Of a stretch of 32,520 bases of DNA, positions 3,001 to 6,000 are shown one piece after another (the first letter of the stretch is position 1; the number at the start of each line of letters is the position of its first letter). The DNA is from a virus (lineage: Duplodnaviria; Heunggongvirae; Uroviricota; Caudoviricetes). The stretch lies in IMG/VR virus record IMGVR_UViG_2531839666_000028. One strand, given 5' to 3'. Position numbers: made by a program.

Positions 3001-6000
3001 TTCCAGGTTGAGCGAGACCTTACCTTTGGTTTTCGTGTTCATCACACCGGAAGCGACTTCACTGAGAACTGCGCCGATTTTTGTTTCAAATACGCCGCCG
3101 TCCAGCTCCCCGATAAATGCCTGCACATCAGTACTGCGTTCGCTAGCCATTTTGTTGCTCCTCATCATATCGACCCTGCAAGGTCGGTTGGTTTCTCCAC
3201 AAAACAGAGAAGAACACCTGCGGTGGCAGCCGCCCGGATGGATTGGGTTATGAGCCCGTCGTCCGGTGATGCTCTTCTCTGTTTTGTAAAAAGAGCGGTA
3301 CCAGCCGGAAGCAAGTGTACAAACTGGTACTGCCAAAGCAGTGGCTGTTGTGGTGACCGGTGCTGATCTCCGGCTTGCGGTTATTTCAGACTCTCACGGG
3401 CGTTTGATTGCCCCGCCGAACAGCTCTTTTCCGCAATAGCTGCAATGTCTTTCGCGCATCAGCCTGCGCATTCACCACAACGCTGAGAGCATTGCCGGTG
3501 TCCGAATCGAACGGACCTTTTCCCTGCCCAACCCTCCCATCTGAATGGGACTGTCTGGAATTGAACCAGCACTTATGCCTTGCTCGTCAATGCTCTCATC
3601 GTTGCGTCCTGGTCTCTTCCCAGGCGTCAAACCGAATCGCCACGCTGGTTAGGCGTCTTATCAGCATCCTCATTGACTTGCACATTCCGGCTACCTGGTT
3701 TGTTTGCCCGAGCAAGGAGTGGATTGTCCCCTTTAACGTCCCCAGACCGCTAACGACGCATGTGCCATACGCCGTGTTACAACCAAATTTTGTTAGGACC
3801 TTGTTTGTTGGTCTGGAAAGAAAGATAAAATGAAATTGCGCATTATGCAAGTGTTTTTGTTGCGAGATGCGCAATATGATGGGTGATGAAAAGCCACCTT
3901 CTGGTGGCTAATTGATGAGGAGGTCGGGGTTAATTGTGTCGCTTAAGGGTTTGTGACTGACTGATTAAGACCTTCCCAAAGACCATAAACCGGTGTTCGT
4001 TTTCGCTGGTAATTCCCCATTCACGGTAAATCTGGTTATCAGAAATCACCAGTAGTTTGTCAGGTATCATTTGCAGTCGTTTGACATAAATTTTATCATC
4101 AAAACCAAACACATAGATACCATCCCCATCAAACTGATTGATACTGATATCAACGAAGATGAGATCTCCTGGCTCAATGGTTGGACACATACTGTCCCCA
4201 CGAACGTTGATAACTTTAATGTGATTGGCTGGTCGTCCTCCAAACATCGATACAGCATTATCAGTTATGTATTCAATGGCATGAATCACATCAATGACAT
4301 CACCGCCCTGGATAAGGCCATTTCCCGCACTGGCACTGACATCCAGCATTTCAATACGGAATACATCCTTCACCTGCGCAACATCCTCACCAGTACTGTT
4401 TTTACATACAGTATTACTTTTGAAGTCTGAGGTAAAGAGATCTGCAATATCAACACCTAAGCTCCTGGCAATATTACTCAGGGCTTGTTCAGTGAATTGT
4501 TTCTGCTTACCTGTTTCCAGGCGTGAGATATTCGCCGCATCCACTCCTATTGCTTCAGCGAGATCGGCGATTTTCATGTTCTTCGCCTGGCGAAGTTGTC
4601 TGACTCGATTTCCTATGTTCATGCGTTTATTACATTTCTTTATTGCGCGTTAAGCAAATCAACTTGCGCAAAATATTTGCGTGAAATAATATGCTTATCA
4701 CGCAATATGTGGAGGTTATATGCAATCACCATTACGAAATGTGCGTAAGGCGCACGGATTTGCTTTGCAGCATGTTGCTGCGGGTGTTCAGGTTAATCCA
4801 GCGACGCTGAGTCGTATTGAGAGACTGGAACAAATTCCATCTATCGATCTGGCAGAGCGTCTGGCCAATTTTTTTAAGGGAGAAATCAGCGAAATGCAGA
4901 TTCTCTATCCTGCTCGCTTTCAATCTAGTCAAAACCGGAATGAGTTAAAACCACAGGAAAAGGAGGTAAGCCGTGGGTAAGCATCACTGGAAAGTGGAAA
5001 AACAGCCTGAGTGGTACGTGAAAGCGGTCAGAAAAACTATCGCGGCGTTGCCGGGTGGTTACGCTGAAGCAGCTGAGTGGCTGGATGTAACAGAGAACGC
5101 TTTATTCAATCGCCTTCGTGCCGATGGCGATCAGATTTTCCCGCTGGGATGGGCAATGATTTTACAGCGCGCGGCTGGCACTCACTACATTGCGGATGCT
5201 GTCGCACAGTCTGCTGGTGGGGTGTTTGTATCGCTTCCTGACATTGAGGAAGTAGAGAACGCCGATATAAACCAGCGCCTGCTGGAAGTCATCGAACAGA
5301 TCGGGAGTTACTCAAAGCAGATTCGTTCGGCAATCGAAGATGGGGTAGTGGAGCCACACGAGCAGACAGCAATGAATGATGAGTTGTATCTGTCAATTTC
5401 GAAGCTCCAGGAGCATGCGGCACTGGTCTACAAAATTTTCTGCGCTCCAGAAAAGAGTGACGCCCGCGAGTGTGCAGCTCCGGGCGTCGTGGCGTTTTGT
5501 GTCTGTGGAGAAACTAACGCATGAACAGTTTAACGGCAAATAACCGTTTGTCGCAACAGCTGGTGGTCAGTGTCGCTGCACACCTGTTGTTACGGCATGA
5601 ATGCAGATTACCAAATCACCTGGCTGTAAGTAACCACAGAGAACTTTACCTGACTGTGGGGGGCGAGTTGTGCAGGAACTTAACCGCTGGTTTCGTGACG
5701 GAAGAGGACTTTATGTTCATGTTATTCGTTGGGAGCCAGAAACACAGCGCGTTATCTATCTTCGCAAAGACTACCCGCATGAGTGCTTTAGTCCTTTGTG
5801 GAAATTCAGGCGTGATTTTGTTGAGTGTGAAGGACCACCAGCATATTGATTCTGCAATTCCGGGACGTTACACTGTTCAGGCACCTTATAAAACGGGTGC
5901 CGGGATTGGCGTCCTGAAATTGATTACTGAGCATAACCGCGCTCATGCGGTTTTTTCGTGTCATGAGCATTACTACGCCCAAATTATGGTGGGGCGTACA

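Follow-up and report, generated by a model that had tools for sequence, protein, structure and literature searches.

The early-left region of the window

The early regulation of lambdoid phages is a textbook system, and a lambdoid immunity region is present in the 32,520-nt stretch of virus DNA analyzed here in full (IMG/VR record IMGVR_UViG_2531839666_000028, Caudoviricetes; hereafter "the window"): a cI-type repressor gene (3930-4622, minus strand), a cro-like gene (4720-4980) and a CII-like gene (4973-5524). In the leftward direction, a yfdP homolog is the first credible gene, followed by yfdQ, yfdR and a small open reading frame (ORF) for an AlpA/TorI-like excisionase. Between the left operator and yfdP lies an interval (3151-3835) in which a first-pass annotation had recognized neither a convincing ORF nor an N-like antiterminator, and for which it had considered a long structured leader, an antitermination RNA of the HK022 put type, a small-RNA locus, or a decayed gene. 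This interval is non-coding, and its promoter-proximal part is occupied by a structured RNA, here called the core, which represents a new, widespread and unannotated RNA family. Further modules follow downstream, and we lean, with some reserve, toward reading the whole interval as an array of immediate-early non-coding RNA modules in the pL transcript, which would also attenuate transcription into yfdPQR-xis.

Directly downstream of cI, the minus strand carries a cI terminator hairpin (3908-3889) and then the left operator dyads (3875-3860 and 3850-3836), as read from the sequence. A putative pL promoter on the same strand (within 3815-3875) consists of a -35 element TTGCAT (3850-3845), a 17-nt spacer and a -10 element TATCTT (3827-3822), in a layout that mirrors that of pR across cI. 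Transcription would thereby start at about 3814 and, since yfdP is the first credible leftward gene, the leader would be about 660 nt long. In 5' to 3' order, it would comprise the core RNA (3778-3607), a module A (3605-3475), a module B (3481-3347), a terminator (3334-3288), a 25-bp hairpin (3293-3194) and the ribosome-binding site of yfdP. The 681-nt minus-strand RNA folds with a predicted free energy of -253 kcal/mol (z = -4.55 against dinucleotide shuffles). The proposal of a long structured leader held: in the direction of the pL transcript, structured modules follow one another through the interval, with an intrinsic terminator at the end.

The array is a mosaic whose sub-segments recur separately in very different phages, as revealed by BLAST against phage records: 3151-3335 is found in SfV-type phages, 3346-3494 in Klebsiella phages, 3475-3698 in the epsilon15-like phage SPC32H, where it adjoins a tRNA-Arg gene, and 3611-3788 in P1 between trnI and ban, in the same sense as transcription of the ban operon, while a piece of 31-45 nt is common to many phages, including virulent ones. 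Ahead of 80 yfdP genes that encode 100% identical proteins, five leader architectures were found.

Absence of a protein-coding gene

Between the operator dyads and the start of yfdP, all ORFs are short or start with TTG or GTG. The largest one on the minus strand is the weak ORF that had been noticed before, with a non-ATG start inside the operator (92 aa, TTG, 3596-3874), and the largest one on the plus strand comprises 141 aa, likewise from a TTG (3408-3833). A Pfam scan of ten interval ORFs from both strands gave no match, and a PHROG scan of the same ten gave matches to function-less families only. Three close relatives annotate the interval in incompatible ways: ORFs are called on the plus strand in mEp460 and on the minus strand in phiSTEC1575-Stx2k, and 1720a-02 has no annotation here. 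At most 12 of the 32 diverse core copies keep any given reading frame open, and multiples of three make up only 22% of the indels.

An N-like gene was found neither to the left of pL (ORFs in 3151-3874, Pfam and PHROG) nor among ten proteins of the right operon, which included the CII-like, replication and Q-like proteins but not every small ORF of the window. This agrees with the first-pass annotation, in which no N-like antiterminator had been seen. To our knowledge, a large group of lambdoid phages, among them the SfV, mEp460, cdtI, LLS and Stx2c types, have no N gene and no known driver of early-left transcription either.

A new structured RNA family

The core is 172 nt long in the window (3607-3778, minus strand) and about 150-180 nt in the family. 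It is matched by our covariance model R2 with 137.9 bits (E = 1.6e-43; E-values of the home-built covariance models are rough, as the calibration was shortened) and is present as a single copy. According to the core alignment, it starts with a hairpin, P1 (3774-3754), and a helix, P2 (3750-3742 with 3698-3690), which encloses a variable arm. An invariant single-stranded block, GGUAGCCGGAAUGUGCAAG (3695-3677), and a variable hairpin come next, followed by an H-type pseudoknot (3656-3630) and a terminal hairpin with the loop GAAGAGA (3624-3608). The pseudoknot pairing is CACC/GGUG in the family and AACC/GGUU in the window.

This structure is carried by covariation in an alignment of 32 copies with a mutual identity below 95.5%: 94.4% of the cells are paired, compared to 25-47% if the partners are slid by one to three columns, and 13 pairs have changed on both sides, a result matched by none of 500 shuffles. 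Clean Watson-Crick swaps occur in P1 (G-C/A-U), in P2 (C-G/U-A) and in the pseudoknot (C-G/A-U). A second, independent set from bacterial genomes gave 96.2% paired cells, with 11 of 25 pairs changed on both sides, and across at least 12 genera compensatory changes keep the four helices and the pseudoknot of the core. The functional sense is that of the minus strand, because several invariant G-U pairs would turn into A-C mismatches if the RNA were read from the opposite strand; in line with this, the covariance model matches only the minus strand of the window. A long-range pairing that RNAalifold proposed (GCACAU/AUGUGC) was set aside for the local P1 hairpin, which covaries. A decayed gene or remnant of N, which was also considered, is ruled out by the covariation and the conserved G-U pairs, together with the lack of a conserved frame and of any protein-family match.

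The search for RNA families that had been recommended was productive in one respect and negative in another: the core defines a new family with covariation, but no family of Rfam 15, which was scanned at gathering scores over the whole window and at E ≤ 10 over three sub-intervals, was recovered in 2900-4100. In this stretch, only chance-level matches of at most 21 bits (E ≥ 0.35) were obtained at E ≤ 10. None of the phage records that contain the core names it; most have no feature at this place, and a few have hypothetical-protein calls or a ribosome-binding site. Among the matches listed, RefSeq records of E. coli have no feature over the core. In the literature library that was searched, no paper was retrieved with the exact sequences of its invariant blocks, and keyword searches gave no description of the core.

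Distribution and genomic context of the core

Lambdoid phages, P1 and epsilon15-like phages share an invariant 19-mer of the core, GGTAGCCGGAATGTGCAAG, which is carried by at least 120 viral contigs. The core is present in 1,831 of 5,426 complete E. coli genomes (about a third), at 2,464 places, 554 of which are on plasmids, and it also occurs in P1, P7, D6 and epsilon15-like phages, as well as across 12 or more genera of Enterobacterales. The covariance-model searches covered the collected loci: the model matches 44 of the 80 yfdP loci and all 24 species-representative bacterial contigs with the 19-mer, 22 of which come from at least 12 genera of Enterobacterales. The remaining two contigs (L227 and L239) are metagenome bins labeled Oscillospiraceae and Bacillota, and are probably mis-binned enterobacterial prophage; L239 has the best-scoring core of all (170.9 bits).

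The position of the core is characteristic. In the window, it starts about 36 nt after the putative pL start. An ORF for an S24-type repressor lies upstream of the core on the same strand in 69 of 132 distinct contexts, and in 60 of the 132 the stop codon of the repressor is 50-200 nt before the core; these repressors belong to at least three families. In mEp390 and in prophages with HK022-like operators, the core occupies the slot that is held by putL in HK022. Another 11 of the 132 contexts are P1-like, with the core adjoining the 3' end of a tRNA: in P1 itself, it abuts trnI within the ban operon, in the same orientation and in the 5' untranslated region (UTR) of ban. In 17 epsilon15-like contexts, a stem module comes after the core, and then tRNA-Arg(UCU) and a terminator. 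The orientation of the core relative to transcription is always kept.

Several observations were made beside these main patterns. Loci L014 and L020-L022 (1853-1935, 2020-2532) share the cI of the window and have only a weak core remnant of about 15 bits. Beside this remnant lies a reverse-oriented ORF of 170 aa with an N-terminal hydrophobic stretch that, by eye, resembles a signal peptide, an arrangement that looks as if a moron had been inserted at the expense of most of the core. In P1 (L006, about 2400-2500), between the core and ban, the sequence AUUUUCUGGUGAUGAC directly after the core resembles the 5' seed of DicF, UUUCUGGUGACG; it is separate from the "dicF-like region" that is annotated elsewhere in the same operon. 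In locus L118 (6039-7166), HicA/HicB-like genes and another ORF lie, as judged by eye, between an HK022-like repressor gene and the pL operators, and are presumably co-transcribed with cI in the lysogen.

Scaffold modules downstream of the core

Module A (3475-3605, minus strand; -55 kcal/mol, z = -3.6) consists of a closing stem (3605-3588 with 3494-3475) and a variable insert (3587-3495). Within the insert lie the hairpins CUGG-UUCAAUU-CCAG (3569-3555), CCCAU-UCAG-AUGGG (3549-3536) and GUCCG-UUCGAUU-CGGAC (3516-3500), two of which have T-loop-like loops. The second and third are the minus-strand hairpins that had been named by the first-pass annotation; both are present and are part of the minimum-free-energy fold. 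Leaders of the mEp460 type have about 40 nt in place of this 97-nt insert and keep the closing stem, whereas the epsilon15-like phage SPC32H has the same insert. A tRNA or pseudo-tRNA, an idea prompted by the T-arm-like hairpins, was rejected: ARAGORN found only two tRNA-Arg genes in the window, both at 12930-13096, at E ≤ 10 the Rfam tRNA model had no match in 2900-4100, and the insert that contains these hairpins is dispensable.

Module B (3347-3481, minus strand) is predicted to form a four-way junction, a cloverleaf-like scaffold. It is composed of a closing stem (GUUGUGGUGA/UCACCACAAC), a 5' hairpin (GCGC-AGGCUGAU-GCGC), a 3' hairpin (GCCGG-AGAUCAGCA-CCGGU) and, between the two hairpins, a "cargo" arm that is variable. 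The closing stem and both flanking hairpins show compensatory changes between copies (GCAC/GUGC, GGCGG/CCGCC, GCUGG/CCAGC, CCUGG/CCAGG, and GAUGUGGUG/CACUGCAUC in the Qin prophage of K-12), while the cargo arm differs freely. In a sister prophage (L152, 4600-4646), the cargo arm matches a helix of the small subunit (SSU) rRNA (positions 172-218 of the Rfam SSU model, E = 1.4e-7) and, judged by this match, is a putative rRNA-fragment mimic displayed on a phage RNA scaffold. Another module B subtype contains the exact 3' hairpin of STnc100, CACCGGGAGGCACCCGG, and in epsilon15-like phages a real tRNA-Arg(UCU) sits in the module B slot. Scaffolds of both modules, without a core, are also found in Klebsiella phage K751 (L243, about 1120-1310), a virulent member of the Ackermannviridae with a genome of 157 kb, inside a stretch of about 2.3 kb without an annotated gene. 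Outside temperate phages, too, such RNA cassettes may therefore form arrays, and such modules without a core count against a role of the core in cis.

Predicted terminator, long hairpin and start of yfdP

The array ends with an intrinsic-terminator-like hairpin and U-tract, GGCAGUACCAG...CUGGUACCGC-UCUUUUU (3288-3334, minus strand, predicted fold), which occupies the position of DicF. A conserved hairpin with U-tract ends the array in most family members. In an alignment of 52 terminator variants, the window and its identical relatives have an A at 3331, whereas all others have a G and a perfect 10-bp stem; the predicted stability is -15.0 kcal/mol in the window compared to -21.2 kcal/mol in the majority form. 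A3331 may therefore be a variant that raises read-through in this Stx2a-type phage. Within 800 nt downstream of the core, terminator-like sites were detected in 106 of 140 contexts, compared to 56 upstream and 83 on the antisense strand. These counts come from a relaxed version of a home-made scan that was too strict at first, and they indicate a crude trend only, because even the relaxed version misses the weakened terminator of the window itself.

Overlapping the terminator, a near-perfect 25-bp hairpin is predicted (3194-3293, minus strand; -51.2 kcal/mol, z = -6.8), as stable as none of 200 shuffles. Its 5' arm begins in the U-tract of the terminator, and its end is 30 nt before the Shine-Dalgarno sequence of yfdP, which makes it a candidate RNase III site between the RNA array and the yfdP mRNA. 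The region in front of the gene (3148-3188, minus strand) contains a small hairpin (3188-3169), the Shine-Dalgarno sequence AGGAG (3162-3158) and the ATG (3150-3148), at which the alignment with the PHROG yfdP family begins. Upstream of this ATG, the similarity to K-12 CPS-53 is limited to the last 18 nt or so.

Comparison with DicF, STnc100, tRNA cassettes and the lambda N leader

The closest counterpart with experimental data is the dicBF operon of the Qin prophage. There, as in the window, a non-coding RNA is located inside a repressor-controlled early operon of a lambdoid prophage, and the protein genes are reached only by read-through of the intrinsic terminator at its end. By eye, about 17 of 20 stem bases of DicF match the terminal hairpin of the window. 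The Rfam DicF model (RF00039) gave no match in 3270-3370 at E ≤ 10, and it matches a sister copy in L152 only weakly (19.4 bits, E = 0.15, gathering score 48). K-12 dicF (L218, 3225-3590, the interval between ydfC and dicB) is flanked by modules homologous to those of sister leaders: before dicF, there is an unannotated stem-closed module of about 135 nt (GGTTGTGGCAACCCGCGAAATGG...CCGCTGCAAC), whose homolog takes the place of module B in a third of the leaders examined here, and after dicF an unannotated scaffold of the module B type (GATGTGGTGAATGCGGCTGAGCGC...CACCTGGAGGCACCAGGCACTGCATC). Unlike the window, Qin lacks the core and has three small genes ahead of the RNA part. The Qin operon transcript starts at a repressor-controlled promoter and gives rise to a 190-nt species by RNase III and to the 53-nt DicF by RNase E, with the 3' end of DicF at the terminator (bioRxiv 10.1101/2023.04.14.536235). 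The window array has the DicF-type position and terminator, while RNase processing of the flanking modules has been shown for Qin only; by analogy, Qin dicF is the best experimental precedent for how the window array is likely to be handled. The small-RNA option of the first-pass annotation gains from this comparison, as homologous Qin modules are processed into stable RNAs.

STnc100 (PasD, RF02076) and the unit of module B plus terminator (about 200 nt) have, by eye, the same build: a closing stem with GGUGAAU at its end is followed in turn by a 5' hairpin, a middle part that varies, a 3' hairpin, the 3' strand and the terminator. The Rfam STnc100 model has no match in 2900-4100 or in 3335-3495 at E ≤ 10, and the positions differ, STnc100 being located downstream of Q and module B in the early leader. 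Phage tRNA cassettes resemble the array by position, since epsilon15-like and P1-like phages have real tRNA genes in this slot or right next to the core. The window modules share cloverleaf-like junctions and T-loop-like hairpins with tRNAs, but have no anticodon arm and no CCA end. Finally, the N leader of lambda, with nutL and an RNase III site, is likewise a long structured leader between pL and the first gene, and in both leaders the first ribosome-binding site is directly preceded by a long duplex that would suit RNase III. In contrast to lambda, no N gene was found and no boxB was recognized in the window. The only boxA-like sequence of the window, CGCUCUUUUUA (3297-3287), overlaps the U-tract of the terminator. 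In other loci (L168, about 3345-3375, as well as L112 and L125), a short hairpin and then an rrn-type boxA, TGCTCTTTAACAAT, follow directly after the core. We take TGCTCTTTAACAAT to be equal to the boxA of the E. coli rrn leader, and the hairpin-then-boxA order to be that of rrn operons. This sequence resemblance suggests that Nus-factor antitermination might operate on the L168, L112 and L125 leaders.

Further RNA features lie elsewhere in the window. STnc100 itself is present at 14511-14718 on the plus strand (177.5 bits, Rfam model). The right operon contains isrK (5881-5957, 60 bits) and a C4 antisense RNA (5982-6069, 82 bits) in tandem on the plus strand, inside one long 387-aa frame of the ORF list and just upstream of an antirepressor-like coding part, which is a c4-ant arrangement like that of P1 immI, but in a lambdoid right operon. 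At 12029-12781 (plus strand), a Q-like antiterminator gene is followed by two tRNA-Arg genes (12930-13006, tcg, and 13020-13096, tct) and, further on, by STnc100.

Possible functions of the array

Under the interpretation that we lean toward, RNA polymerase would first transcribe the pseudoknotted core of about 170 nt once the repressor leaves the left operator (OL). It would then transcribe two stem-closed scaffold modules, which would show variable inserts, tRNA-like or STnc100-like in shape, and would next meet a DicF-type hairpin that doubles as intrinsic terminator. Some polymerases would stop here and yield a discrete RNA of about 530 nt, whereas others would pass through the 25-bp hairpin into yfdP, yfdQ, yfdR and the excisionase-like gene. 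RNase III would cut the long closing stems and the 25-bp hairpin, and RNase E the single-stranded linkers, leaving stable small RNAs. Judged by homology and anatomy, partial termination at 3288, processing by the two nucleases RNase III and E, and read-through are each likely. With such processing and partial termination, the leader would have two jobs, namely to deliver immediate-early non-coding RNAs and to meter early-left transcription. As the unpaired block of the core is invariant, a conserved host partner is suggested. This partner might be the transcription elongation complex, in which case the core could act in cis in a put-like manner, by carrying polymerase through the array and shielding the long untranslated RNA from Rho; this is our leading, but tentative, guess, and we regard a role of the core as a stable RNA that binds a host protein or RNA in trans as about equally likely. 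In favor of a role in cis are the promoter-proximal place of the core in N-less phages, the terminator after it, the boxA in some relatives, and the view of the authors of the LLS study, who likewise found no N in this related phage and guessed at an RNA mechanism (PMC12315714).

Several observations weigh against the two-job interpretation or against individual parts of it. The match of pL to the promoter consensus is weak (7 of 12 positions), and the promoter is absent from the list of an automatic promoter scan. The same terminator and 25-bp hairpin occur without a core in 36 of the 80 yfdP loci, and the core can therefore not be generally required to pass the terminator; in P1, ban follows directly after the core with no terminator in between. 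The window terminator is weakened by an A-C mismatch, and simple leakiness could suffice. The arms of the 25-bp hairpin show almost no substitutions in the 52 variants, so that covariation is silent on this element. Within the core, covariation is partly clade-structured, and the A-U/C-G change in the pseudoknot pair maybe reflects one or two evolutionary events. A possible four-base contact between the P1 loop and GUGC is invariant on both sides and thereby beyond the reach of covariation. Lastly, the core does not resemble put at the level of a family model. A put covariance model (R1) built from seven sequences (HK022 putL and putR, HK639 putL and those of four other phages) recovers HK022 putL with 96 bits, HK639 putL with 90 bits and HK022 putR with 47 bits, but reaches at most 4.2 bits in 3100-3950 with filters off and has no match at the core in 13 other loci. 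According to a cryo-EM study, G35 is essential for put, and an A9-G35 platform together with the bulged U28 contacts the zinc-binding domain of the β' subunit; counterparts of A9 and U28 can be aligned in the core, but the counterpart of G35 is U, C or A.

Given the negative put model, the lack of conservation of G35 and the absence of a stem II, the core does not belong to the put RNAs, and membership in the HK022 type that had been proposed is not supported. Some similarity is nevertheless apparent by eye: ACGGCG...CAUGCGUCG..AGCG, including the position of the G12-U32 wobble, is common to the P1 hairpin and to the apex of stem I in put, which may reflect a distant relationship or convergence at one hairpin. 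Both elements occupy the slot just downstream of pL in lambdoid phages without N (HK022 and HK639 in the case of put), and both are structured; put acts as nascent RNA, as the core would. They differ in size and architecture (about 70 nt with two stems in put, about 170 nt with a pseudoknot in the core) and in copy number, as there is one core per phage and, unlike put, none after pR. A put-like role of the core is thus possible on grounds of position and local sequence. Taken together, the first-pass interpretation is partly supported: the interval is a structured leader and small-RNA locus, and neither a put RNA nor a decayed gene.

One alternative would be that the core replaces N as a self-sufficient, processive antiterminator in cis, put-like in function but a different RNA: bound to RNA polymerase as nascent RNA, it would render the enzyme resistant to the terminators of the array, to those downstream and to Rho. 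This would fit the promoter-proximal occurrence of the core in N-less lambdoid phages of several immunity types, in the slot of putL in HK022, the terminator that separates pL from all early-left genes, the local identity to the put stem I apex, the invariant unpaired block and the conjecture of the LLS authors. We nonetheless consider it unlikely, since neither G35 nor stem II has an equivalent and the put model is negative, the terminator is kept without the core in many yfdP loci, the P1 core has no terminator to overcome, and the rrn-type boxA after the core in some relatives would be redundant if the core sufficed. Alternatively, the entire array might produce trans-acting immediate-early RNAs, as decoys or regulators directed at host factors or defenses, with any effect on downstream genes being incidental. 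The core travels with tRNA genes in RNA-only units (trnI in P1, tRNA-Arg and terminator in epsilon15-like phages), inserts of the scaffolds mimic cellular RNAs (T-loop hairpins in the window, the SSU rRNA helix in L152), modules A and B occur without the core in a virulent phage of the Ackermannviridae, and DicF and STnc100, known trans-acting or Hfq-bound prophage RNAs, have a similar build. Against this stand the failure of the Rfam models of DicF and STnc100 to match the window modules and the fact that mimicry has been seen in sister loci and not demonstrated for the inserts of the window itself; a purely trans-acting array is therefore a possibility that we hold with considerable doubt.

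Two further explanations are much harder to reconcile with the data. Being compact and pseudoknotted, with unpaired nucleotides that are invariant, and located in a 5' leader, in P1 directly in the 5' UTR of ban, the core is reminiscent of a riboswitch-like element that senses a ligand or factor and thereby sets downstream termination or translation. However, no expression platform overlaps the core, the sequence past its last hairpin varies freely, and the terminator of the window is about 270 nt, i.e., two modules, beyond the 3' end of the core. Moreover, the downstream genes are unrelated between contexts (tRNA, ban, yfdP), unlike those of a metabolite riboswitch, and no Rfam riboswitch matches, which renders this explanation very unlikely. 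That the interval is functionless, being either mosaic debris from module shuffling (pieces of tRNA or attP, scars of recombination) or an N-like gene in decay, might be suspected from its patchwork nature, with pieces that occur separately in unrelated phages, from the resemblance of the T-arm-like hairpins to tRNA remnants, and from the partial replacement of the core by a reverse-oriented moron in some relatives. This idea is largely refuted by the compensatory changes that preserve the core fold across genera, and the 19-nt block that is invariant from P1 to epsilon15-like phages, the strictly kept orientation to transcription, and the lack of protein homology, of a conserved frame and of any detected tRNA speak against it as well; we regard it as extremely improbable.

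Implications for phage biology

A concrete, conserved, promoter-proximal RNA is now known at the place where N or put would sit, and it provides a defined element for asking how such phages pass their own leader terminator and express their excisionase. Its carriers include Shiga-toxin phages and P1-type plasmid prophages, in which it is overlooked by current annotation, and genome annotators should at least stop calling spurious ORFs in this interval. Modules of the DicF, STnc100 and tRNA type are linked by these findings into one modular system of RNA cassettes, which extends over temperate and virulent phages. More speculatively, the core might represent a new class of host-factor-binding phage RNA, be it a second family of RNA-only processive antiterminators, unrelated in structure to the first, that replaces N in many lambdoid phages, or the head of an immediate-early array of scaffolded decoys. 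If this were true, a widespread and previously unseen layer of RNA would exist in the classic lambdoid early circuit and, in the case of decoys, tRNA-like and rRNA-like mimics would serve host takeover or counter-defense.

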